Positions 1-49,302 of a stretch of DNA of 64,000 nucleotides are shown here, piece by piece. How positions within the stretch are numbered: position 1 is the stretch's first letter; every line of letters starts with the position of its first letter. The notes below the pieces were generated by a model. The model searched no databases. It saw only the letters and a list, made by a program, of their open reading frames with translations, and was not told the DNA's origin. Location: NCBI GenBank assembly GCA_965215345.1, contig CBDCDL010000001.1, forward strand, positions 448,251 through 512,250, in the 5' to 3' direction. A program made the position numbers and the translations under genes. The DNA comes from Spirochaetia bacterium. Lineage in GTDB: Bacteria > Spirochaetota > Spirochaetia > SZUA-6 > Bin103.

Positions 1-441
<441 letters not shown>

Positions 442-3048: not shown

Positions 3049-4322
3049 TGCAGCAGCAGCCGGCGGCGGCGCAACGCGTCGATGCGGGCGGCAAGGAGCT
3101 CGACCGGCTCGTCGGGCTCCAGGCGGATGATGGGCACGCCGACCTCGGCAAGCTGGCGCGAGGCGGTGTCGGTCTCCATGCGCCACAGCGTCACCGCCGC
3201 GGCTTCACTCGGTGTGGCGCCGTACACGGGTGCCAGCGCCAGCGCGGGGTTGATCACCACGGCGGCCACGTCATAGCGGCGGCTGGCCAGGTTGAGCAGC
3301 GTGTCGGTGAAGCGCACGTCGATCAGAGGTGTAAAGGCGGCGATCAGCGCCTGTGCGGGCAGGATCTGCCGCGGCACCTTGGTGATGTCGCGGTCGACGT
3401 CGCTCTCGCGGGCGCGCACGTCGGTGAGGAACTCCAGGATCCGGTACTGCTGGCGGGTCCCCAGGTTGGGGCTCACCCAGCGCAGCAGGCCGGACAGCTC
3501 GATGCAGCCGACGCGGTTGTTGCCGGTCAGGAAGTAGCGCGCCAGCGCGGCGACGATGCGGGTCGCCTGGTCGAGCACCGTGGAGCCGAACGCCCCGGCG
3601 TCCTCGAATGCATCCAGCAGCAGCACGATGTCGGCGTTGCGCTCGCGCGTGTACTCGTTGACGTACATGCGGCCGTTGCGCTGCGTGGCGCGCCAGTTCA
3701 CGGTGCGCAGCCGGTCGCCCGGCACGTACTCGCGCATGCTGGCGAACTCCAGGCCCTCGGAGGCTTCGCGCGAGGGGTAGTTGCCGACGTTCACCTGCGT
3801 GTGGAACGGCCGGATCGGGCGGCTGACCGAGTCGACCCGCGGGTAGGCGGTGCAGATCTTGGGGTCGCTCCACTCCGCCTCCCACATGATCATGCCGGAG
3901 CCCGTGTAGGCGCGGTGGAACAGCCGCCCCTGCGTGAAACGGGCCCGCCGGTCGATACGCAGGCGGTAGCGGCAGGTCTCGGTCTGACCGGGGCCCAGCG
4001 ACACGATCACGCCGTTGCGGCCGGAGACCAGCGAGGCGCCGGCCGGCAGCGGATCGATCACCTCCGCGATTGGCACCGCGGTGCCGGCGTGGACGGTGAA
4101 CTCGACGTCCACCTCGTCCCCCTCGAACAGCGTCAGCCGGGAGATGCTGTGGCTGAAGCGCAGGCGCGGCTGGCGGTCGCCGAGCAGCGCGGCGACGATC
4201 GCCACGGCGAACGTGGCGCCGATCATCACCAGCTCGATGCGCCGCAGCAGCGCCGCGAACACCAGGCTGACCAGGGTCAGCGCCAAGTAGGCGACGAAGC
4301 GGGAACCGAAGTGCTTGGTCAC
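3045..4322 (-). CDS. DUF58 domain protein (MoxR-associated, vWA-like)
   Basis: Carries the DUF58 signature block ...NVGNYPSREASEGLEFASMREYVPGDRLRTVNWRATQRNGRMYVNEYTRERNADIVLLLD. It follows a MoxR ATPase gene. Confidence 0.75.
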   Translation of the reverse strand: MTKHFGSRFVAYLALTLVSLVFAALLRRIELVMIGATFAVAIVAALLGDRQPRLRFSHSISRLTLFEGDEVDVEFTVHAGTAVPIAEVIDPLPAGASLVSGRNGVIVSLGPGQTETCRYRLRIDRRARFTQGRLFHRAYTGSGMIMWEAEWSDPKICTAYPRVDSVSRPIRPFHTQVNVGNYPSREASEGLEFASMREYVPGDRLRTVNWRATQRNGRMYVNEYTRERNADIVLLLDAFEDAGAFGSTVLDQATRIVAALARYFLTGNNRVGCIELSGLLRWVSPNLGTRQQYRILEFLTDVRARESDVDRDITKVPRQILPAQALIAAFTPLIDVRFTDTLLNLASRRYDVAAVVINPALALAPVYGATPSEAAAVTLWRMETDTASRQLAEVGVPIIRLEPDEPVELLAARIDALRRRRLLLQ

Positions 4323-4329
4323 GCCTTGT

Positions 4330-4386
4330 CCCTGGTCACGCTTCGGCCCTGGTCACGCTTCGGCCCTGGTCACGCTTCGGCCCTGG

Positions 4387-4397
<11 letters not shown>
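4330..4397. repeat. Intergenic tandem repeat, ~4 copies of a 17-bp unit (cctggtcacgcttcggc) between the DUF58 stop and the MoxR stop/start region
   Basis: Direct reading of the sequence. Confidence 0.7.
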
Positions 4398-5385
<988 letters not shown>

Positions 5386-8482: not shown

Positions 8483-9663
8483 GCCGCGCCCTGATTCGGC
8501 ACGACGCACCGGAAGCCGCGGAGCTCCTCGCGGACGATCCCGACCTGCAGCCGGCGCTGGCGCCGGGCGAGTTCGACGAGCGCTTCCTGGCGCTGCACCG
8601 GCAGCTCTTCCGCACCGACGAGCCGGACTTCTACGAGGTTACCACGCACGTCTTCCGCCCGCCCGCGCCGTACCACGTCGCCGATCACCAGTTCCTGTGG
8701 GACGGGAACCGCTGGCACCTGCTGTACGTGACCGGCGACATCAGCAGGATCGACGCCTACCGCCGGCACATGGAGGCGGGGCGTCTGGACGAGGCGGCGG
8801 CCCAGAGCCCGGAGGTCGGCATCGGCCATGCCAGGGGCGACGGCCTCGGCACGCTTGCCTTCCGCCGCAACCTGCTGCTGCCGTCGCAGGGCGCGTTCGA
8901 CAAGGTGACCCGCGGCGTGCCGTATTGCTTCCGCTACCAGGGACGCTGGGGGATGCTCTACGAGGTGCGCGGCGCGGGCGGCGACCACCAGAGCTTGGCG
9001 TGGTCGGACGACGTGGAGGATTGGACCCAGGACGCCGACAACCCCGCGTTCGGGCTGCCGTCGTGGGGGCCGAATCCGGGCGGCGCGGCGCAGGACGTCT
9101 GCGTGCTGCGCCGGCCCGGCGGGCTGTACCTGATCTTCTTCAAGTCGAAGGCGGGCGAGGGACAGGTCGCCGTCGGGCTCAACGCCACGCGCGACTTCCG
9201 CACCTTCGTGGAGTTGGGGCCGGTGTTCCGCTCGCCGCCGATGCTGCGCGGCACCATCGGCCTGGAGTCGCCGTGCGTGGTCGAGCGCGACGGCATGTGG
9301 CACCTGTTCTTCACGCTCGGGCCGGGGACGTGGCACGCGGTCAGCGACCGGCCGACCGGGTTCCTGCAGGGCGGCACCTACTGGCGGGTGGGCACCGGCA
9401 GCTACCTGCTCGGCCACTTCCACGCCGCCGAGGTGTTCGACCGCGACGGCCGCTGGTTCCTGTCGACCACGCGCAAGGAGCAGTCGCGGCTGGAGAACCG
9501 CCGGCAGGGGCGGCTCTGCTACCGGGGCACCTACGAGGACGAGATCGTCCTGGAGGAAGGGGTGTTCCTGAGCGAGATCGAGTGGGACGGCGATCAGCCG
9601 TTCGTGGCCAAGCCGGATCTGGCCAAGCCGGAAGTGGCCAAGCCGGAAGTGGGGGGAACATGA
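8479..9663 (+). CDS. Beta-propeller glycoside-hydrolase-like protein, paralog 2, with a C-terminal AKPEV pentapeptide repeat
   Basis: ATGA overlap with the upstream paralog. It has the same blade motifs. The C-terminus reads AKPDLAKPEVAKPEV, encoded by 15-bp repeats at 9607-9651. Confidence 0.55.
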   Translation: MSRALIRHDAPEAAELLADDPDLQPALAPGEFDERFLALHRQLFRTDEPDFYEVTTHVFRPPAPYHVADHQFLWDGNRWHLLYVTGDISRIDAYRRHMEAGRLDEAAAQSPEVGIGHARGDGLGTLAFRRNLLLPSQGAFDKVTRGVPYCFRYQGRWGMLYEVRGAGGDHQSLAWSDDVEDWTQDADNPAFGLPSWGPNPGGAAQDVCVLRRPGGLYLIFFKSKAGEGQVAVGLNATRDFRTFVELGPVFRSPPMLRGTIGLESPCVVERDGMWHLFFTLGPGTWHAVSDRPTGFLQGGTYWRVGTGSYLLGHFHAAEVFDRDGRWFLSTTRKEQSRLENRRQGRLCYRGTYEDEIVLEEGVFLSEIEWDGDQPFVAKPDLAKPEVAKPEVGGT

Positions 9664-14313: not shown

Positions 14314-15321
14314 TCACAACGGCGCGACGGCGATCAGCGGGTCTTCGCCCCGTGAGGCGAGAAGGTTGCGCAACGGGCGGCCGAAGTGGGGGGACTCGAT
14401 CTCGAAGCGGTCGCCGGGCTGTGGCTCGATGCCGTGGGCGCAGCTCAGGATGGGGGCGCCGAGGAAGTGGCAGTGGAGGTCCCAAGGGCGGCGGAACAAG
14501 CCGTACTTGAACAGGTGATGCTCCATGTTGGCCAGGGTGTGGGTCATGTTGGCGTCGCCGGTCAGGAAGGTGGCCTGCCAGAGTACGGTGCCGCCGCGGC
14601 GCACGCGAACCTCGCCTTCAACTGACTCCGGAAGGAGGCCGAGCAGCAGCTCCGGGCCGATCGAGCAGGCGCGCAGCTTGGAGTGGGCGAGGTACAGGTA
14701 GTTCTGGCGCTCGATGACGTGGTCGGCGAACTCGTTGCCGAGCGCGAAGCCGACGCGTCGCGGGCGGCCGTCGCGGCCGATCAGGTAGACGGCCACTGCT
14801 TCCGCCTCCTCGCCGCCGTCGCCGGCGAAGCCGGGGAGGGGCAGCTCGTGCTCCGGCGGGATGAGGATGCTGCCGTCGCCTTTGTAGAACCACTCCGGGG
14901 CCACGCCGATGGTGCCGGCCGGCGGCTTGCCGCCGCGCAGGCCGAGCCGGAACATGCGGATCGAGTCGGTCACGGCGTCGTCGTCGGCGCCGTCGCCCGA
15001 GCCTGCTCCGCCGTGCATGGCGTCCCGCGCCATGGCGCTGCCGGTGTGGTTGAGGCCGGTGCCGGAGATCAGCAGGTGGGCGGGATCGGGGTGGTCGATC
15101 GGCGGCAGCAGGCGCCGCTCGTCCACCAGCGCCTGGTAGTCGACGCAGGAGTCGCGTTCGCAGCCGGCCACCAAGTCGACCAGCGGGTGGCCGGTCGCGT
15201 CTGCCGACCGGGCCAGCTCAAGGACCGACGCGACGCCGGCGAGCTGGTCGACCCGGTCGCGGTCGCGCACGACACCCACGCGCCGCGTGCCTGAGGCCGA
15301 TCGATACTGAACCAGGCGCAT
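14314..15321 (-). CDS. Fumarylacetoacetate-hydrolase (FAH) family protein (GguC-like)
   Basis: N-terminus MRLVQYRS...GVV plus Gly-rich metal-binding-like segments. Family assignment is tentative. Confidence 0.45.
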   Translation of the reverse strand: MRLVQYRSASGTRRVGVVRDRDRVDQLAGVASVLELARSADATGHPLVDLVAGCERDSCVDYQALVDERRLLPPIDHPDPAHLLISGTGLNHTGSAMARDAMHGGAGSGDGADDDAVTDSIRMFRLGLRGGKPPAGTIGVAPEWFYKGDGSILIPPEHELPLPGFAGDGGEEAEAVAVYLIGRDGRPRRVGFALGNEFADHVIERQNYLYLAHSKLRACSIGPELLLGLLPESVEGEVRVRRGGTVLWQATFLTGDANMTHTLANMEHHLFKYGLFRRPWDLHCHFLGAPILSCAHGIEPQPGDRFEIESPHFGRPLRNLLASRGEDPLIAVAPL

Positions 15322-15404
15322 CTACTGCCACTCCGGACTCAGGCGAATGAACGCCTTGAGCAACGAACCGCCCGACATGCGACAGGCAGCCTCGGCCGCG
15401 TCGG

Positions 15405-16376
15405 TCACAGCCGCTGCACCTCGCCGGTGCGGATCGCCCGGTCGGCGGCGAGCACGATGCGCGTGGCCTGGATGCCGTCGGTGGCGTCGAGGTCGGGGGC
15501 GCGACCGGCGCGCAGCGCGCCGATGAACTCGCGATTCTCCAGCAGGAAGCCCTCCTCCTCTTCGACCCGCTCCGACCACTGGCGCTCGCCGTCGTTGAAC
15601 GTGGCCTGCTTGAAGCGGTCGTGGAGCTGCACGCTGCGGCCGCCGCCGAACAGCTCCAGGAAGAACTTGCTGGTCATGTGGCCGAGCGCGGCGTCGCCCT
15701 GGATCCAGCTCGCCACGGCGCCGGAGGCGAAGCGGATCGAGGCCACGCACTGGTCGATGCGCGGATGGCCGGGGTGGGTCATGGCGCCGCCGGCCGCCCA
15801 CAGCAGCTCCGGCTCGCTGCGCGCCATCCAGCGGATCACGTCGGTGGTGTGGCAGCCCTGGCTGTAGACGTTGGCGCCGCCGCGCACCGGGTCCTGCGCC
15901 CAGGCGTCGTCGCGCCAGCGGCTGTCCATCATCTGGCCGACGATCACCTGCGGCTCCGGGACGAACTCGCGCGCCTTCCGGAGGAGCGGGTAGTAGCGCA
16001 TCTTGAACGCCGGCATCAGCCACACGCCGGCCTCCTCGACCGCGGCGGCCACCGCCTCGCATTCCTCGACCGACAGCGACAGCGGCTTTTCGATGAGGAT
16101 GTGCTTGCCGGCGTGCGCCGCTTCGATGGCCAGCGGCGCGTGCGAGTCGTGATGGGTGCAGATGTAGACGCCGTCCAGATCGGGGTCGGCAAGCAGGCGG
16201 GGGATGTCCCCGGTCGCGTAGCCGCCGTGCTCGGCCGCAAGCCGCTCGGCCGCGGCCGGCACCACGTCGGCGAAGGCCGTGAAGCGGGCGCCGCCCACCT
16301 CACGCACGCAGCCCGCGTGCACGGCGCCCAGGCTGCCGCAGCCGATCAGGCCGAAGCGCAGGTCGCGGGTTCTCAT
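15405..16376 (-). CDS. Gfo/Idh/MocA family NAD(P)-dependent oxidoreductase
   Basis: Rossmann N-terminus (LRFGLIGCGSLGAVHA) and the EKPLSLSVEE motif. ATGA overlap with the upstream gene. Confidence 0.8.
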   Translation of the reverse strand: MRTRDLRFGLIGCGSLGAVHAGCVREVGGARFTAFADVVPAAAERLAAEHGGYATGDIPRLLADPDLDGVYICTHHDSHAPLAIEAAHAGKHILIEKPLSLSVEECEAVAAAVEEAGVWLMPAFKMRYYPLLRKAREFVPEPQVIVGQMMDSRWRDDAWAQDPVRGGANVYSQGCHTTDVIRWMARSEPELLWAAGGAMTHPGHPRIDQCVASIRFASGAVASWIQGDAALGHMTSKFFLELFGGGRSVQLHDRFKQATFNDGERQWSERVEEEEGFLLENREFIGALRAGRAPDLDATDGIQATRIVLAADRAIRTGEVQRL

Positions 16377-32054: not shown

Positions 32055-32343
32055 GGTCGTCTCCCTGCTTGCGGCATCTTATCGGGTCTGCCGGTGCGCC
32101 GCCGGCCGCCCAGCCGGCGGCGCACCGGCAGCGAACAACGGACGCCTCTCTCTCTCTTGATCCGAGTGCCGGTGCCCTCCATGCTGCGCCAGTACCTGGA
32201 CGCCATGGTCCGCAACTCCAGGCCCATAGAGCATATCCGAGACATTGGAATGCTCTGATGCCAAGCCGCTGACGACTCGGTGATCTCCTGGAGTGACCGA
32301 GGCGTCGGTGGCGGCACAAGGTAGATTGCGGCATGATCGACGG

Positions 32344-33267
32344 ATGAATTCCTCAGTCCTGACGCCCGCGTCGTTCTCGCCTTCGACGACGTCCGTCGAA
32401 GACTTCGACTTCACCGCTGGGCAGGTGGACGTCGACGCCATGACGGAGGCGTACCGCAGGCACGGCGCCGTGGTGATGCGCGGGTTGTCCGAGGACTACG
32501 TGGCGGACCTGCTGCAGGACATGGAGGCGATCCTGGAGCAGAGCCAGGCGCTTCTTCCCGAGGCGGCGGCCGCCAAGCATCACGCCAACGCCGTGACGAC
32601 GCCGGACGGGACGCTGTTCAACGCCGACCCCAGCGATCCGGGGCGCATGGTCGTCAACACGCTGCGGCTGAACGCGATGATCTCGAGCGCGTTCCTCCGC
32701 TCGCTGGTCAACCCCGAGTTGCTGGAGCTGCTGGCGGCGCTGATCGGTCCGGACATCGAGCTGTGGAAGTGGGGGCAGTGCGTCTACAAGCAGCCCAGGA
32801 CGGGCGTGCCGAAGTCGCTGCACCAGGACGGGTACTACTTCGAGCACAAGCTGCAGAGCCCGACGGCGGTGCTCAGCTACGCGGTCGACGTGGACATGGG
32901 CAACGCGCCCCTGTACGTAGTGCCCGGCTCGCACGAGCTGGGGCTGGTCCGGCATGAGGACGACCGCTGGGCCGGCTTCGCGCTCAACGATCCCGTGTGG
33001 TGGGAACGCGCCGTGCCGATCGAGGGCAGTGCCGGGGACGCCGTGATCTTCCACACCTGCACCATTCACGGCTCGCCGGACAACCGCTCGGACCGGCCGC
33101 GCCCGGTGTTCATCAAGCGCTACCGGCGCGCGGACGACTTCTGCGTGATCGACGTGGCCAACGTCGCTGACCGGCAACGCGCCGAGCAGGCGCCGGTCGC
33201 CGCCAAGACCGAGGACGACTGGGGCCTGATGGTACGCGGCATCCGTCGCTATCAGCCGGCGGAATAG
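32344..33267 (+). CDS. Phytanoyl-CoA dioxygenase (PhyH) family protein
   Basis: SLHQDGYYFEH...VVPGSHE blocks. The ATG at 32344 is chosen over the longer ORF start at 32293. Confidence 0.7.
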   Translation: MNSSVLTPASFSPSTTSVEDFDFTAGQVDVDAMTEAYRRHGAVVMRGLSEDYVADLLQDMEAILEQSQALLPEAAAAKHHANAVTTPDGTLFNADPSDPGRMVVNTLRLNAMISSAFLRSLVNPELLELLAALIGPDIELWKWGQCVYKQPRTGVPKSLHQDGYYFEHKLQSPTAVLSYAVDVDMGNAPLYVVPGSHELGLVRHEDDRWAGFALNDPVWWERAVPIEGSAGDAVIFHTCTIHGSPDNRSDRPRPVFIKRYRRADDFCVIDVANVADRQRAEQAPVAAKTEDDWGLMVRGIRRYQPAE

Positions 33268-35993: not shown

Positions 35994-36668
35994 TCATGCC
36001 AGCCGCTCCCACCGGTCGGGGTCGATGGCGCCGGTCACCGGGCGGCCCGCGAAGAAGTCCTCCAGCGCGGCTACCGTGGCGTCGCCGATGCGGCGGTGGC
36101 CGTACCGTCCGTGGCCGGCCACGTCGCCGGCGCCGACGATGCCGACGATGGCGCCGGTCAGGTACTGCTCGCCCACCGGGATCTGCGGCGAGCGCCAACC
36201 GCCGGTGCGGCGCACGTGCAGGGCGTGATCCATCAGGCGTTGCGCGCTCATGATGATCAGGCCCAGAGTGGTCTCGGCTACGTTGTAGGCGATCGGCACC
36301 GTTGAGGTGAACACGCAGATGCGGCGCGGGGCGATGTAGTCCGTCCAAACTTGGTCCAGCATGCGGCGCACCGATCCGGCCGAGTGGGCGATGATCCGCA
36401 GCCGGTCGGCCGCCTCCATGATCGCGGGCGTGATCGATGGCGGTCCGCCGGACGCCGGGGCCGCCCAGCCGGTGATGAGCGCATCGTGGCCGCCGATCAG
36501 GGAGCAGATCTCCGCCTCGGTCAGGTCGCGGTCGCCCTCGTTGCGGGTCACCTCGAAAGCGCCCTGCAGGCGCGTCCAGGACTCGGGGGTGAACACCTTC
36601 GCCGTGTGCTCGCGGGCGGGCAGGTGCAGGACGCGCGGCCGGCGCGCCGCGGCCGTGTCAGCCGGCAT
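35994..36668 (-). CDS. D-isomer-specific 2-hydroxyacid dehydrogenase-like protein, shorter than usual and possibly truncated
   Basis: NAD-binding Gly-rich segment GIVGAGDVAGHG. At 224 aa it is shorter than the typical ~310-aa family members. Confidence 0.4.
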   Translation of the reverse strand: MPADTAAARRPRVLHLPAREHTAKVFTPESWTRLQGAFEVTRNEGDRDLTEAEICSLIGGHDALITGWAAPASGGPPSITPAIMEAADRLRIIAHSAGSVRRMLDQVWTDYIAPRRICVFTSTVPIAYNVAETTLGLIIMSAQRLMDHALHVRRTGGWRSPQIPVGEQYLTGAIVGIVGAGDVAGHGRYGHRRIGDATVAALEDFFAGRPVTGAIDPDRWERLA

Positions 36669-38112
36669 GGTGTGCTGCCTTGCAGCCGATCTCGGTGTCA
36701 CCGGTGGCGCGCTGCCAGCCGCGGATGCGGGCGGTCAGGTCGCGGCTGTGCTCGGCATGCTCCGGGAGGAAGGCCAGGTTGGCGGTCTCTCCCGGGTCGT
36801 CGTTCAGGTCGTAGAGCTCGTGCTGACCGGCGGGGCTCAGGCAGAACTTCCACCCCTCGGGCGTGATGATGCAGCGCACGGCGTCGGCCAAGTCGGCCAG
36901 CCCGGCCTCGCGCGTGGTCACCTCGGCCAGGTAGTCGGGCAACGGGTCGCGCTTCAGGTCCTCGTGGACGAGGTAGTTGATGCCCGTCCACTCCACGAAC
37001 GCGGGCCGTGGCGGCGGGTCGGCGCCGTCCAGCCACGGGGTGAGCGACGTGCCCTGCAGGTGCTCGGGCGCGGCGAGGCCCAGCTCGTCGAGCACGGTCG
37101 GCACGACGTCCACGTGACCCACCGGCGCGTGCACGTGCCGGGCTTTGCCCTGCCCGGGCCGGCTGATCAGCAGCGGCACGCCGATCGACTCCTCGTACAT
37201 CAGGTTCTTGCCGAAGAGCTGGTGGCTGCCGGCCAGCTCGCCGTGATCGGCGGTGAGGATCACCAGCGTGTCGTCGGCCGCGCCCGAGGCGTCGAGCTGG
37301 TCGAACACCCGGCCGAGCGCGCGGTCGACCTGCGTGCACAGGCCCCAGTAGCGCTGGATCAACAGGCGCCACGCCAGGTCCGAGCGCAGGGCGATGCCGT
37401 CCTTGCGGTGGTGCAGCACGGACAGGTGCTCCAGCAGCGCCTTGCGGGGCTGGTCCGGGCCGGGCGGATGGTGCCAGTTGTCCGGCAGCGGCACCTGGTC
37501 GAAGGGATGCAGGTCGTCCAGGGGGCCGGACAGCGGATCGTGCGGCTCGTAGAAGCAGAGGGTGAGGGCGAACGGCCGGTCCGCGTGGCGGCGGATGAAG
37601 TCGCACGCCTTGGTGGCGATGTTGGACGGACCGCCCAAGTGTTCGGGGATGGCCGGCCGGTCCGCCTTGCCGAAGCGTACGCCGTCGGCAGGCGTGAGCC
37701 CGTGCGCACGCAGCAGGTGGTCGGGAGCGACGTCGTTGAAGTCGAGTTCGTCGATGCCACAGGCGCGCGGCGCCGGCCCGTCAATGTAGCGGTGGCCGCC
37801 GCTCCGGCCGAAGAACCCGCACACCCAGCGATCGTCGAGCAGATCGGTGAGGCAGGGGATGTGGTCGTGCATGGGATGCTCGCCCAGCGTGACCTGGCCG
37901 TTGTCGTGCGGCCAGGTGCCGGTGAACAGGCAGGCGCGCGCCGGACCGCACACCGGCTGGGCGCAGTAGGCGCGGTGGAAGACGGCGCTCCGCTCTGCCA
38001 ACGCGTTCATGCGCGGCACCTGGATGCGGTCGTTGCCGTGGGCGGCCAAGGTGGAGCGCGCCTGCTGATCGGTGACGATCAGCAGCAGGTTGGGCGGTGT
38101 GCGGGATGCCAT
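36658..38112 (-). CDS. Sulfatase (formylglycine-dependent arylsulfatase family)
   Basis: Blocks LLIVTDQQ, the C-x-P-x-R motif (CGPAR) and TADHGE. Confidence 0.85.
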   Translation of the reverse strand: MASRTPPNLLLIVTDQQARSTLAAHGNDRIQVPRMNALAERSAVFHRAYCAQPVCGPARACLFTGTWPHDNGQVTLGEHPMHDHIPCLTDLLDDRWVCGFFGRSGGHRYIDGPAPRACGIDELDFNDVAPDHLLRAHGLTPADGVRFGKADRPAIPEHLGGPSNIATKACDFIRRHADRPFALTLCFYEPHDPLSGPLDDLHPFDQVPLPDNWHHPPGPDQPRKALLEHLSVLHHRKDGIALRSDLAWRLLIQRYWGLCTQVDRALGRVFDQLDASGAADDTLVILTADHGELAGSHQLFGKNLMYEESIGVPLLISRPGQGKARHVHAPVGHVDVVPTVLDELGLAAPEHLQGTSLTPWLDGADPPPRPAFVEWTGINYLVHEDLKRDPLPDYLAEVTTREAGLADLADAVRCIITPEGWKFCLSPAGQHELYDLNDDPGETANLAFLPEHAEHSRDLTARIRGWQRATGDTEIGCKAAHHAG

Positions 38113-38129: not shown

Positions 38130-39023
38130 TCAGCGCCCCAGGGCCGCCGCCTGTTGCTGCGGCCCATCGATCCGGCGCCGCTCCTGTTGGTTCCTGCCGT
38201 CCGGGTCCGGGGTGATCGGGGCGCCGGCCGGCATGTAGATGACGTTCATGGCCCGCCGCCGCCGGTCGGTCGGATTGGGGTCGGAGCCGTGCAGCACGCG
38301 CGGGTTCAACAGACAGGACTCGCCGGCCGCGGCGGTCAGGACCACTTTCTCCTGGTCGCCTTCCTGAGCGGTCGCGCGGGCGCGTGCTCGGGCCGTGACC
38401 TCCTGCCACGACAGGCCGTCGGCGTCGAAGTGCCGGGCATCGGAATGCCGGGCATCGGAATGCCGGGCATCGGAATGCCGGGCATCGGAATGCCGGGCAT
38501 CGGAATGCCGGGCATCGGAATGCTGGCTGCCGGGCAGGATGTACATGGCGCCGTTGTCAGGGCCGGCGTCGTCGAGTGCGGTCCAGATCGTGAAGTACGG
38601 GGTGCCGGGCACGGGAAAGCCGGTCCCGGTGTCCTGGTGCCAGCCGAGCGCGGTGCCGCCGTGCGCGGGCTTCATCAGGATCATCGCCCGGTGGATGGCG
38701 AGCGGCTGCGGGACGAGTTGGTGGATCACCTCGAGCATCGCCGGCCCGGTGATCACCGGGTAGAAGACCGGATCCCACTCCAGGCCGCCGATCTTGCGGT
38801 AGCCGTCGGAGGCGCCGGCGTACGCGTAGCCGGTGGAATCGTAACCGGTGCGGCGCCACTTCTCGTCCAGTTGGAAGCCGACCCGGCCGGGAGGGACGCG
38901 GCCGGAGGTCAGGTCGTCCGTGCGCCGTCTGAGCGACTCCAGCTCCGCGGCGCTCATCACTGCGCCGAGGGGCAGGTACCCGTCGGCATGGAACCGTGCG
39001 AGTTGTTCGTCGTCGAGCGCCAT
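38130..39023 (-). CDS. PhyH-family dioxygenase containing a 6x HSDAR pentapeptide insertion
   Basis: PhyH blocks (LGWHQDTG...YILPGSQH) followed by SDARHSDARHSDARHSDARHSDARHSDARH, encoded by the 15-bp repeats. Confidence 0.7.
   Translation of the reverse strand: MALDDEQLARFHADGYLPLGAVMSAAELESLRRRTDDLTSGRVPPGRVGFQLDEKWRRTGYDSTGYAYAGASDGYRKIGGLEWDPVFYPVITGPAMLEVIHQLVPQPLAIHRAMILMKPAHGGTALGWHQDTGTGFPVPGTPYFTIWTALDDAGPDNGAMYILPGSQHSDARHSDARHSDARHSDARHSDARHSDARHFDADGLSWQEVTARARARATAQEGDQEKVVLTAAAGESCLLNPRVLHGSDPNPTDRRRRAMNVIYMPAGAPITPDPDGRNQQERRRIDGPQQQAAALGR
38432..38521. repeat. 6 perfect tandem copies of a 15-bp unit (ccgggcatcggaatg), in frame within the PhyH gene
   Basis: Read directly. Confidence 0.9.
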
Positions 39024-39027
39024 CGGT

Positions 39028-39474
39028 CTACTCGGTGGCCGGCACGTCGCGCAGCTTTTCCAGGATGAACTCGTTGCCCAACCCGTAGGTCTTCGACTCG
39101 TCCATCATCAGCGCCATGTTCGGGAAGCTGATGATCCGCCAGCCGTCGTTCATCGCTTCCAGCACGCTCTGGTACGGCCACTCCTCGGGGTCCTCCGGGC
39201 ACGCCCTGACCTCGCCGTCCTCGACCAATGCCATGCCGTTGACCTTGGAGGTGACCGATGAGAACAGCGTCCACAGGTAGAGGACATCCTGTCGCCGGCC
39301 GTTGCCGCCCAGCGAGCGGACGGCTTCCGCGCAGGCGCGCAGCCGATCTGCCGGGAGCCGGTCCGACTCCAGCAACCGGACGCACTCCTGCAGCTCGTCA
39401 GCCAGCCTGTCCGCGTCCATGGACGCACGCTGTTCCGTCACCTCGCGTGCTGTCAACAGCTCCGCGTCGCGCAC
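39028..39474 (-). CDS. Small uncharacterised protein, member of a two-copy paralog family (see 47239..47625), upstream partner of a PhyH gene
   Basis: Shares ...DP-EEWPYQSV-EA-NDGWRIISFPNMALMMDE-KTYGLGNEFILEK... with the ORF at 47239. Confidence 0.5.
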   Translation of the reverse strand: MRDAELLTAREVTEQRASMDADRLADELQECVRLLESDRLPADRLRACAEAVRSLGGNGRRQDVLYLWTLFSSVTSKVNGMALVEDGEVRACPEDPEEWPYQSVLEAMNDGWRIISFPNMALMMDESKTYGLGNEFILEKLRDVPATE

Positions 39475-39475
39475 G

Positions 39476-40171
39476 TCAGGCCGAGAACGTGCGCGGTCTG
39501 AAGCCCCGCGGGTTGGTGATGCTCGCGCTGCTGCCGGTGGCCCGGATCACGAACAGCCCCTGGCGCGCCGCGTAGCTGTCGGACGCCTCGTCCGCCTTCA
39601 GGTAGGCCACCGCTGCGTACACCGTGCTCCCCCGATACCGCGGCATCAGGTCGGTGAACTCCTGCATCCGGCTCACGAAGTGGTCGACCTGGCGCACCTT
39701 GAGCGTGGTCTTGACCTCGACCACCACCACCTCGGCGCCGTTGACGGCGAGGATGTCGAACTCCCAGCTCCGCTCCCCGCGATGTCGGACGTTGGTAAGC
39801 GTGTGTTCGACCTCGATGCCGCGCTCCTTGAGCAATTCGATCAGGTCGCCCTCCACGAGCGCCTCCATCAGCTTGCCCCACTGACCGTTGAACAGTTCGT
39901 CGAGCCCGCGGAAACGCCGGTCGGCCTCCTTCGCGCGTTGGTCGGCCTCCTGCGCCTGTCGCTTCAGCAGTTGATCGGTCTCCTGCAGGTGCCGACGAGT
40001 CTCCTGCATGCGCCGATCGGTCTCTCGCTGACTTTCGGACAACTCGCGCAGTATGCTCCAGATTTCCTGGGGAGTTGCCGGAGGACGGTGTTCGCCGTTG
40101 CCGTGGTCGTCCTGGTCAGACAAGGGGGTCTCCGATACCGCGAACGTAGCGGTTCCCGTCCCGTCCGGCAA
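39476..40171 (-). CDS. PD-(D/E)xK nuclease-fold protein with an N-terminal coiled-coil region
   Basis: Gln/Glu/Arg-rich heptad-like N-terminus. The core EFDILAVNGAEVVVVEVKTTL fits an E...D...EVK restriction-endonuclease-like motif. Confidence 0.45.
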   Translation of the reverse strand: MPDGTGTATFAVSETPLSDQDDHGNGEHRPPATPQEIWSILRELSESQRETDRRMQETRRHLQETDQLLKRQAQEADQRAKEADRRFRGLDELFNGQWGKLMEALVEGDLIELLKERGIEVEHTLTNVRHRGERSWEFDILAVNGAEVVVVEVKTTLKVRQVDHFVSRMQEFTDLMPRYRGSTVYAAVAYLKADEASDSYAARQGLFVIRATGSSASITNPRGFRPRTFSA

Positions 40172-46243: not shown

Positions 46244-47144
46244 ATGCGCTTCGGGAAGGCTGCGGCGGCCACGCTGACCGCAGCGATGGTGATGGTGGCG
46301 GCTCAGGCCGCAATGGCAGACGAGAGCGGGACGTTCCGTTCACTGAGAAGCTACCACTATGACTATGGAACCGTCGATCACGGTGGGCGGACGTTCACCG
46401 GAGGGGTGATCACGGAACCGGGACGATCATCGAGAGCAGTGGCGGGCCGTTCTTCGAAGGGGCGAACCATTACTCGCAGTGCCTGGTGTTCTCCAGCAGC
46501 GTGGATGGCTCCCTGTCGCTTCTTGAGGCGCCATGTACCGACACCGACACGTCCGGGGACGATGAGGCGTGACGTGACGCGAACGGTGCTGCTGGTGCTG
46601 TTCCTGATGGTGAGTGCGATCCGGCAACGTGGCTGTGGGCGCAGCTGATGCTGTTCCTGATGGTGAGCGCCGCGGCGTGGGCGCAGGAAGGGGGCGGTGT
46701 CGAGTGGGAACCGCTGGCCGGCGCCGGCGGGGTAATAGCGCTTGGAGTGGGGATGATGTTCAAGCTCCTGTCGAGGCAGGACAGGCTCGAAGCCAAGCTG
46801 AACGAGGTGCGCAAGACGTTGACTGCCGAAATAGGCGAGATGCGCAAGACGCTGACCGCCGAAGTAGGCGAGTTGCACAAGACGTTGACCGCCGATATAG
46901 GCGAGATGGCAAGACGCTGACCGCTCACAGCGAGCGCTTGGTGAGGATCGAGGAGACCACGAAGGCCAACTCCGCGAAGATCGGCGAGTTGAGCGCCGAC
47001 ATGGCAGATCTGCGCGCAGAGGTGGGCAAGGTGCGGGAGACACAGGCGATCCATGGCGAACGCCTGTCGTGGATCGAGGGGGCCGTAGATCGAAGGCTGA
47101 AGCCATCGCGCTCCGAAGAGCCGGTCCCGGCGACTCCCGGCTGA
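46244..47144 (+). pseudogene. Decayed direct duplicate of the 41129-42285 two-gene segment (secreted protein + coiled-coil protein), disrupted by 1-nt deletions and an internal ~360-bp deletion
   Basis: 46244-46400 is near-identical to 41129-41290 apart from a 1-nt deletion (ggg to gg). 46648-47144 matches 41830-42285, with the repeat array expanded to four units and a 1-nt deletion that creates a stop. Confidence 0.55.
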
Positions 47145-47238: not shown

Positions 47239-47625
47239 GTGGAGCTCAGGGAGGAAATCAAGCGGCACGTTCAGGTATGCCTTGAGGCGCTGCGGCGCAA
47301 CGAGCTCGATGAGGAGAGCCTGCGGCGCATCGCGGAGCTGGCCGAACGGCTTGCTGTTGCTGGCGGCCGGCAGAACCTGCTCTATCTGCAAGCCGAGCAG
47401 ACCTCGGTCACGAGCAGGGTGATCGGCATGAGTCTGTTCGTCGACGGCGAGTTCACCGACGGCCCGGACGACCCGGACGACTGGCCGTATCAGACGGTCG
47501 GCGATGCGCTGGCCGATGGCTGGCGGATCGTCAAGTTCCCGGAGATGGCGATCCTGCTCGACGAACGGCGCACCTACGGACTGGGCTGCGAGTTCATCCT
47601 GGAGAAGTGGAGGGAGGCAACATGA
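47239..47625 (+). CDS. Small uncharacterised protein, paralog of 39028..39474, upstream partner of a PhyH gene
   Basis: Shares ...DPDDWPYQTVGDALADGWRIVKFPEMAILLDERRTYGLGCEFILEK. Confidence 0.5.
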   Translation: MELREEIKRHVQVCLEALRRNELDEESLRRIAELAERLAVAGGRQNLLYLQAEQTSVTSRVIGMSLFVDGEFTDGPDDPDDWPYQTVGDALADGWRIVKFPEMAILLDERRTYGLGCEFILEKWREAT

Positions 47626-48481
47626 GGCTGCACGACTGCGAACCGACCATGATCGACACCCAGGTCCTGGAGTTCTGCAAGAAGGGATACCTGACGCTGG
47701 AGGGAGTCGTCGGCGACGACATCAACCGGCGCACGGTCGAGTTCGTGGAGACCAGGGGCAGCGAGCCGAGCGAGATCCTGCAGCAGGACTGGTTCATGGA
47801 CAACGTCATCCTGCAGCCCGACGCCGCCGGGGCGGTCCGCTCCCTGCTCGGCAGGAACTTCGGCCTGCCGGTCCTGGTGAGCAATCACCGGGTCACCTGT
47901 CCCATGCCTCGGCAGCAGTGGCACCGGGACGGCAACTCTCCGCACGGCCCGGCGCTCCGGTACCTGCAGGTCTTCTACTACCCCCAGGCGGTCCCGCGGC
48001 AGATGGGCCCCACGGAGGTGCTGCCCGGCTCCCACTTTCTCTACACCAACGGACAGCTCCCGCAGAACTACATGGGCCACTACGGCGGGATCCGCGGGTC
48101 GCACTACACCACCGCGCCGGCGGGGACGATCTTCCTGACGGTCTACTCGATCTGGCATCGTCGCAGCGCGTCGACCGGCTCCGGGGTCCGCAACAACCTG
48201 AAGTACAACTACTTCCGCACGGCATCCGTGTCGCCGGAGCGGGACTGGATCCGCGAGGACGGCTTCGACTTCGCGACCGCGGACTACGGGTTCGGCGAGC
48301 CGCTCACCTACCGGCAGCAGCACCGGGACACCATCGACAACGCGGAGATGTTCTGCTGGCTGTGCGGCAAGGCCGAAGAGTTCCGCGTCCTGGGCGGTCA
48401 GGGGTGGCCGTGGTACCGAACTCCGACAACCACGCGCTCATCGCGCCGCCGTACGGGGTGCCGGAGGGGCTGGACTCCTAA
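47622..48481 (+). CDS. PhyH-family dioxygenase, probably frameshifted near 48395-48410
   Basis: Good GGGAGG ribosome-binding site and an ATGA overlap with the upstream gene. Blocks WHRDGNSPH...VLPGSHF. The C-terminal ~25 codons continue in another frame (…VAVVPNSDNHALIAPPYGVPEGLDS*). Confidence 0.55.
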
Positions 48482-49302
48482 GTCCAGGCGGTCGATCTTG
48501 GCAGCGTCCCCCCGTGTCCGTCGCGGCGGACCGGGACCGGCGTGGCCTTCAGCTCCCGGATGAGCTCGATCAGGCCCTCGACGGCCGCTTCCAGGAACAG
48601 CTCACCCTTCTCCTTCGTCGCCTTCGTCGCGTCTCCCATCACGCCGCTGGCCGTGAGGCTGCTCCAGTGGGGCATGAGGCGGGCGGCCGACCCCTGTGGG
48701 TGCGCGCCCTCCAGCAGGTCGATGCTGAAGCTCGGCGGCAGCGGCGTCCGCTCGTCCACGGCCTTTGACATGTCGACCAAGTCGGGCTCCAGCGCCAAGT
48801 AGAGCGATGTCTCGTACTCGCCGGCGTGTGCGGCGCCGTTGAAGTCGGAGTCCCGCAGGTTCAGCGCCACATCCTTCACGCGCCGCAGGTCCCAGTGGCT
48901 GGCGAAGGCGCAGAGGATGCGGCTTTCGTATTCCACGTTCGCAAGGCGCGCCGCCATGTCGAGGGGCGATGCGTTGCTGCCGTGCCCGTTGATGATCAGG
49001 ATGCGCGCGAAGCCCTGGTGGGCCAGGCTGCAGCACACGTCCCTCACGTAGCGGATGAACGTGTCCCAGCCGATGGTGAGCGTGCCCGGGTAGTCCATGT
49101 GGTGCGGGCTGTAGCCGTGCGGCACGGCCGGCACCAGGATGGCCTCCCGCGGGATCCGGGACACGGCGCGGTCGCAGATGCGGGTCGCCAGCACGACGTC
49201 GGTGTCGACCGGCAGGTGCGCGCCGTGGTCTTCGTAGGTTGCCACGGGCAGGACGGCCACGCGATCCTGCCGGGCGGCGTCCCTGACCTCGTGCATGGTC
49301 AT
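48478..49302 (-). CDS. Creatininase-family amidohydrolase
   Basis: Blocks AVLPVATYEDHGAHLPVDTD..., HGYSPHHMDYPGT and ILIINGHGSN. Confidence 0.65.
   Translation of the reverse strand: MTMHEVRDAARQDRVAVLPVATYEDHGAHLPVDTDVVLATRICDRAVSRIPREAILVPAVPHGYSPHHMDYPGTLTIGWDTFIRYVRDVCCSLAHQGFARILIINGHGSNASPLDMAARLANVEYESRILCAFASHWDLRRVKDVALNLRDSDFNGAAHAGEYETSLYLALEPDLVDMSKAVDERTPLPPSFSIDLLEGAHPQGSAARLMPHWSSLTASGVMGDATKATKEKGELFLEAAVEGLIELIRELKATPVPVRRDGHGGTLPRSTAWT

Follow-up and report, generated by a model that had tools for sequence, protein, structure and literature searches.

A copy-number-variable 15-bp coding repeat of native origin in a PhyH-family dioxygenase gene of a Spirochaetia bacterium

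The locus described here raises the question of where a perfect peptide repeat came from and what it does to its host. The gene encodes a PhyH-family Fe(II)/2-oxoglutarate dioxygenase, and in the middle of it the pentapeptide HSDAR is repeated six times. It lies in what we call the window, that is, the whole stretch of 64,000 nucleotides that was analysed. The original prediction, made from this DNA alone, treated the repeat as an insert in the enzyme and as a very recent expansion, and left open an equal chance that it was an assembly artefact. Comparison with related loci, protein family searches and a structure model lead us to a different emphasis: the array is very likely an ordinary coding VNTR (a 15-bp minisatellite), made by slippage in a permissive loop and probably of little functional consequence. 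The coordinates of the features discussed are collected in Table 1.

Table 1. Positions of the array, its host gene, neighbouring genes and other repeats, in window coordinates
Feature	Position	Strand	Remarks
PhyH-family Fe(II)/2-oxoglutarate dioxygenase gene	38130-39023	-	297 aa; Pfam PF05721
HSDAR block	38433-38522	-	six identical CAT TCC GAT GCC CGG units; residues 168-197
Full array, ancestral phase	38421-38525	-	seven (Q/R)-H-(S/F)-D-A units: QHSDA, 5x RHSDA, RHFDA
Sulfatase gene	36658-38109	-	Pfam PF00884, E 2.9e-38; immediately downstream of the PhyH gene, intact
2-Hydroxyacid dehydrogenase gene	35994-36701	-	downstream of the sulfatase gene; 384-bp in-frame deletion at about 36116-36124
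Small conserved protein gene	39028-39474	-	about 130-148 aa; immediately upstream of the PhyH gene
Hjc-type ORF	39476-40171	-	231 aa; weak nuclease domain match, PF01870, E 9e-5
PhyH-like paralogue	32293-33267	+	
PhyH-like paralogue	47607-48563	+	
Paralogous pair, small protein and PhyH-like gene	47239-48563	+	
EgtB array	82-153	+	15-bp in-frame GCCGACTTCGTGCCG x4.8; EgtB C-terminal (FGE-sulfatase) domain
MoxR/DUF58 junction array	4316-4398	-	17 bp x4.9; multiplied overlapping stop/start junction GCGTGACC
C-terminal tail array	9605-9652	+	15-bp in-frame, 396-aa protein: AKPDL AKPEV AKPEV
33-bp array	46803-46924		x3.7; 11-residue repeat EMRKTLTAEIG; small ORF 46648-46920

The array and its host gene

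The repeat is visible directly in the raw sequence, where the plus-strand reading of its unit is TGCCGGGCATCGGAA. TRF reports a 15-bp tandem array at window positions 38431-38523, with 6.2 copies, 100% matches and a score of 186, the maximum for the window; a perfect periodic run of 93 bp makes a chance origin impossible. In the protein the array stands in the context ILPGSQ-(HSDAR)x6-HFDADGLSWQE, and His, Asp and Arg each make up 20% of its residues. The array, its frame and the number of units as assembled are those first described, and only the coordinates given then (38432-38521) are one base off. When the phase of the ancestral unit is used instead, the array has seven units, and the CAG that opens it and the CAC TTC GAC GCC that closes it are native sequence.

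The assignment of the host gene to the PhyH dioxygenases, also part of the original prediction, is borne out by the family search. The protein scores 88 bits with PF05721, for which the cut-off is 22 (E 1.4e-24, the whole profile, positions 1-213), and its reading frame is the only one across the array that has a family match; no Pfam family other than PhyH was found in it at E <0.01. At the equivalog level of NCBIfam there is no match, the best score, 35.9 bits, being for ectoine hydroxylase, whose cut-off is 336.5. Sequence matches in the PDB are PHYHD1, GriE, EctD and human PhyH. The landmarks of the protein are an HxD motif at H129/D131, a distal histidine at H245, an arginine cluster at 254-257 and PGSQ at 164-167. 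In the alignment of homologues (A1), H129 and D131 do not vary and H245, R256 and R257 hardly do, so that both the metal-binding triad and the 2OG-binding arginine are in place; in PHYHD1, the HQD and H..S..N...R motifs are the counterparts of H129/D131/H245 and the Arg residues. The AF2 model built on the same alignment has a mean pLDDT of 81, a pTM of 0.81 and a core above 90. Foldseek matches this model to 2opw, 5nci, 4mhu and 2a1x at a probability of 1.00, so the fold is a double-stranded beta-helix, its structural neighbours being PHYHD1, GriE, EctD, SnoN/SnoK and PhyH. The enzyme most likely retains activity.

The order of the PhyH and sulfatase genes is kept in all related loci (synteny, L001-L005). 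The small protein encoded on the other side, for which no Pfam family was found, has the motif ...DGWRI..FP.MA...DE..TYGLG.EFILEK and precedes a PhyH-type gene at two sites in the window; with the paralogous pair in Table 1, this suggests that the small protein and the PhyH-type gene form a conserved two-gene module. The Hjc-type ORF is located in an insertion of ~730 bp between a PIN gene and the small protein gene upstream of PhyH, and this insertion is missing from every related locus aligned. An Rfam scan of the whole window returned no RNA family.

Origin of the unit and copy number among relatives

The origin of the unit becomes apparent when the gene is compared with its orthologues. 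Homologues in the protein collection number 22, and the nine closest, at 67-81% BLASTP identity (73-90% over aligned columns), are 258-263 aa long and read PGSQ-HFDADGLPWQE, with nothing between. The comparison of DNA covered five metagenome contigs (L001-L005) and ten species-representative 'Spirochaetia bacterium' MAGs (L006-L015), at 82-91% nucleotide identity to the window gene. In all fifteen the gene is exactly 90 bp shorter and has a single native CAG CAC TTC GAT GCC, encoding QHFDA. One further MAG, L016 (CBDATQ010000002.1), has four units at the site and in the phase of the window array. They read QHSDA-QHSDA-QHFDA-QHFDA and are followed by DG; in DNA, there are two copies of CAG CAT TCC GAT GCC and two of CAG CAC TTC GAT GCC, then GAC GGC. 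The number of units is thus seven in the window, four in L016, and one in L001-L015 and the listed cluster members. Some 110 proteins are listed in the nine orthologue clusters, and P0027 of L016, at 275 aa, is the only one longer than about 260-263 aa. The two PhyH-like paralogues in the window have no array past the PGSH motif, as had been noted at the outset, and the wider survey extends this absence to nearly all orthologues, with a single unit in more than 100 relatives.

The window and L016 have in common the derived change of two bases from CAC TTC to CAT TCC, to which the units in the window add CAG to CGG, and in both arrays the 3'-most unit or units are of native type. Since native and variant units stand side by side in L016, the unit derives from the gene's own QHFDA codons. 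The array unit is therefore the gene's own 15 bp (CAG CAC TTC GAT GCC) duplicated in place and not foreign DNA, and what had been called an insert is a tandem multiplication of native codons.

The idea that a mobile or exogenous repeat unit was inserted into the PhyH gene has one observation to recommend it, namely that the identical 15-mer CAGCATTCCGATGCC occurs in 5.7 perfect copies in the unrelated intergenic context of another contig (L017). Yet only two to three bases separate the unit from native gene sequence, native-type and variant units are neighbours in L016, and terminal structures or target-site features are lacking. One chance match in 241 million contigs is, moreover, not very improbable (the rough expectation is about 0.04-1), and the match is probably a coincidence. 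We regard such an insertion as scarcely credible. L017 itself is a sediment metagenome contig in which the 15-mer, identical to the variant unit of L016, lies between mreB and a SAM hydroxide adenosyltransferase-like gene; 1 kb away is a second perfect 15-bp array, AADEP x3 (the two arrays are at 2613-2698 and 3657-3704). It was the only contig returned by a scan of metagenome contigs for two consecutive units, which gave no further alleles of the PhyH locus.

The same comparison bears on whether the array, or its copy number, was created by assembly or consensus error. The exact PhyH protein of the window, when sought in a public gene index, was not on record, and a 33-bp array not far away has a 1-bp frameshift that may be a consensus error. 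Against this, an independent MAG, L016, carries an array at the matching site and in the matching phase with a different and internally variable structure; 93 bp is below typical read length; the array is exactly in frame, with intact native sequence on both flanks; and other arrays of the window are confirmed as variable loci in independent assemblies. The two possibilities are hence not equal, as the independent array in L016 and the shortness of the tract relative to reads make an artefact very improbable. The PhyH array is a real feature of variable copy number, for which the count of units is the assembled one. The repeat can be treated as real biology: it is neither contamination nor a mobile element, and no misassembly is obvious.

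The age of the array needs to be separated from the age of its last expansion. Six identical units do indicate that the last round of expansion was recent, but this holds for the final rounds of the CGG-type unit only. The array as such is older than perfect identity suggests, since L016, another species-level MAG with a gene 90.6% identical, has the CAT TCC variant at the same site in its four-unit version. The gene tree makes L016 the sister of L001, which has no array (96.7% identity); the identity of the window gene to every member of that clade is ~90%. The array-bearing alleles are not sisters, so a single origin would mean either that the array shrank back to one unit several times or that a short tract was exchanged by recombination. 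Such shrinkage would be easy, because removal of internal units restores the native sequence. Two SNPs are exclusive to the window and L016, at gene positions 657 and 678, which follow the perfect units at distances of 66 and 87 nt downstream. A recombination tract between the two was considered and dropped as a claim, the two shared SNPs being too weak for it; they give a weak hint of a common haplotype.

We propose that the array arose in the following way. The native 15 bp after the PGS(H/Q) motif would first have been duplicated in tandem, in place. One copy would have gained the change from CAC TTC to CAT TCC (F to S), and the window lineage would have added CAG to CGG (Q to R). The variant unit would then have been multiplied by slipped-strand mispairing or by unequal recombination between direct repeats, leading to the seven units of the window (six extra, 30 aa), the four of L016 and the one found elsewhere. 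Replication slippage is the most likely of the mechanisms.

The lid segment and the state of the enzyme

A structure model had been suggested as a check of whether the repeat falls in a surface loop, and in the AF2 model it lies in an unstructured stretch just after the PGS(H/Q) motif. Residues 171-200 have a pLDDT <50 and no secondary structure, and are located between a strand at 160-163 and a helix at 206-219. The low pLDDT is partly automatic, as the window protein stands alone in the alignment at those columns. The placement of the loop is based on the sequence alignment to EctD and PHYHD1, in which residue 168 aligns near EctD residue 188, together with the published description of EctD. 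In EctD, residues 195-211, which join strands IV and V of the DSBH, are invisible in the crystal and have been proposed as a mobile lid, and the matching loops of PhyH (223-233) and AsnO behave likewise (PMC2871039). By this homology the array lengthens a flexible, length-variable lid segment that adjoins the active-site entrance. It resembles the lid loops of known PhyH-type dioxygenases (EctD 195-211, PhyH 223-233, AsnO 208-223) in its equivalent position in the fold, after a PGSH-type motif, and in being predicted to be unstructured; it differs from them in that the window lid is 30 residues longer than that of the orthologues and consists of a perfect pentapeptide repeat.

The unit is five codons long, so that a change in copy number never shifts the frame and alters only the length of a hydrophilic stretch of His, Ser, Asp, Ala and Arg. 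The segment that joins strands IV and V in the jelly-roll core, a mobile lid in EctD, PhyH and AsnO, tolerates extra residues. The array is most likely neutral or nearly so, and tolerated rather than selected.

It is also conceivable that the array has a function, either as a His/Asp/Arg-rich lid extension of 30 residues that alters substrate access or as a metal-binding or metal-delivery arm, with copy number as a selected tuning knob. Each unit holds H-x-D, the spacing of the iron-binding HxD, and the array borders the active site and is rich in metal-binding residues. The derived unit containing Ser persists in two species-level lineages, and the gene is under purifying selection by a crude count. 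However, more than 100 orthologues manage without the array, and the other arrays of the window are of unrelated composition (ADFVP, AKPEV), one of them being intergenic, which makes the formation of arrays look mutational rather than selected. To our knowledge, no member of the PhyH family has been reported with such an arm. A selected function is on balance unlikely.

Another reading is that the array is tolerated because the operon is decaying and the PhyH gene is turning into a pseudogene in the window lineage. In the window only, 384 bp (128 codons) are missing from the next gene but one, which encodes a 2-hydroxyacid dehydrogenase, and the window PhyH protein differs by a private Y-to-C substitution and a changed C-terminus. 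On the other hand, the PhyH and sulfatase frames are intact, the PhyH protein has kept its catalytic H/D/H and Arg residues, and the four-unit array of L016 is situated in a fully intact three-gene operon. The private codon changes, in what is a crude count, are 16 synonymous and 9 non-synonymous on the window branch versus 48 and 22 pooled over the other ten branches; the ratio resembles that of the other lineages and thus gives no sign of relaxed constraint on the window PhyH branch. The dehydrogenase deletion leaves some room for operon decay, which we consider improbable as the reason for the array.

The deletion in the dehydrogenase gene is evident against all related loci. It extends from just past the GxGxxG motif to the catalytic PHVAGH region, removes most of the NAD-binding domain, and lies between short ACGT-GGCC-like direct repeats. 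The gene is probably dead, in this genome only.

As a coding VNTR, the array can be compared with several known classes of repeat. It shares with the bacterial coding VNTRs used in MLVA typing the head-to-tail arrangement of units of high identity, a unit length that is a multiple of three, a local origin of the unit from native sequence, and a copy number that differs between related genomes (1/4/7); in both, the units closest to the edges have diverged most or are native, and those inside are homogenised. It differs in lying inside the catalytic domain of a cytoplasmic enzyme and not in a surface or secreted protein, and in having been seen so far in only 2 of >100 orthologues. The presumed mechanism, slipped-strand mispairing at tandem repeats, is also that of phase-variable simple-sequence contingency loci, but the window array does not belong to these, since its 15-bp unit lies within an ORF, 417 bp upstream of the start of the next gene; it causes no frame shift or on/off switching and is not in a promoter. 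With the pentapeptide-repeat proteins (PF00805) it has only the five-residue periodicity in common: HSDAR departs from the A(D/N)LXX consensus in any phase, there is no match to the Pfam profile, and the array is predicted to be unstructured.

For practical purposes, an annotation as an intact PhyH-family dioxygenase is appropriate for the gene, with its lid extension marked as lineage-specific. The alleles with one, four and seven units constitute a natural series for testing how much length the lid between beta-IV and beta-V tolerates. The understanding of tandem-repeat evolution is unchanged, the array being a fresh instance of a well-known kind of feature.

Short tandem arrays in the window and its relatives

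The PhyH array is not the only one of its kind in the window. Two other genes had been said to carry 15-bp in-frame repeats, and both repeats are real: one is in the gene for EgtB (ergothioneine sulfoxide synthase) and the other in the C-terminal tail of a 396-aa protein. Exact tandem duplications with periods of 10 bp or more occur in the window only at period 15 (three arrays) and period 17 (one array). The three arrays besides that of PhyH also multiply native sequence, and two of them vary between close relatives. In EgtB the array reads ADFVP x3, ANFVP and then the native ANFVE, where homologues have a single xxGNFVE; the search for EgtB orthologues returned mostly fragments of distant EgtBs and one close match (P0108) that begins inside the array region. 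The AKPDL/AKPEV tail has one unit in P0229, P0233 and L019 and three diverged units in P0228 and L018 (about 11090-11185 in L018 and 11120-11155 in L019). The junction of the MoxR-type AAA and DUF58 genes is present in one copy in L019 and in about two in L018.

Several arrays of like period, two of them variable in copy number, make a shared propensity to slippage reasonable, and the lineage plainly tends to multiply short stretches of about 15 bp in tandem. The proposal of a shared mechanism stands to that extent; for a claim of a specific mechanism the sample is too small. Expansion driven by hairpins was considered as a general mechanism and dropped. The PhyH array DNA is moderately self-complementary, with folding z-scores of -2.4 and -3.0 on the two strands, and it has a GGCAT/ATGCC stem made longer by the derived changes of C to T and A to G. 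The energies of two units are not monotonic, however, at -3.2 (native), -2.6 (L016 type) and -5.2 kcal/mol (window type), and the other window arrays, with z from -1.6 to +2.4, have no excess structure.

A broader conjecture is that this high-GC 'Spirochaetia' MAG lineage has a mutational process that prefers tracts of ~15-17 bp and repeatedly turns native sequence into pentapeptide arrays in loops and termini of conserved enzymes (the PhyH lid, EgtB, a C-terminal tail) and into arrays at gene junctions. We hold it to be unlikely. If it were true, the preference for 15-17 bp would point to the footprint of a specific polymerase or repair system and not to generic slippage, and a new metal-handling feature could evolve from the His-x-Asp lid array. 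The 15-17-bp arrays are in any case possible strain-typing markers for these uncultured bacteria.

Some further features of these repeats were observed. The EgtB units fit the A(D/N)(L/F)xx pentapeptide-repeat pattern and precede the conserved NFVE motif, and the junction array separates the MoxR-type AAA gene from the DUF58 gene by about 70 bp. In the 33-bp array, a 1-bp deletion inside the final unit breaks the frame, and the reading goes on to 47144 in a different one; its ORF is either a pseudogene or a consensus error. TRF applied to the related loci found another independent 15-bp array. In L001, L002, L006 and L016 (about 15300-16150, locus coordinates), a 15-bp array of CCGCCGGAGTCACCG x4 with ~80% identity sits in a 98-aa hypothetical gene that is present in relatives and missing from the window. 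These four loci are dense in toxin-antitoxin pairs (PIN, HEPN/MNT, YoeB) and in PhyH paralogues.
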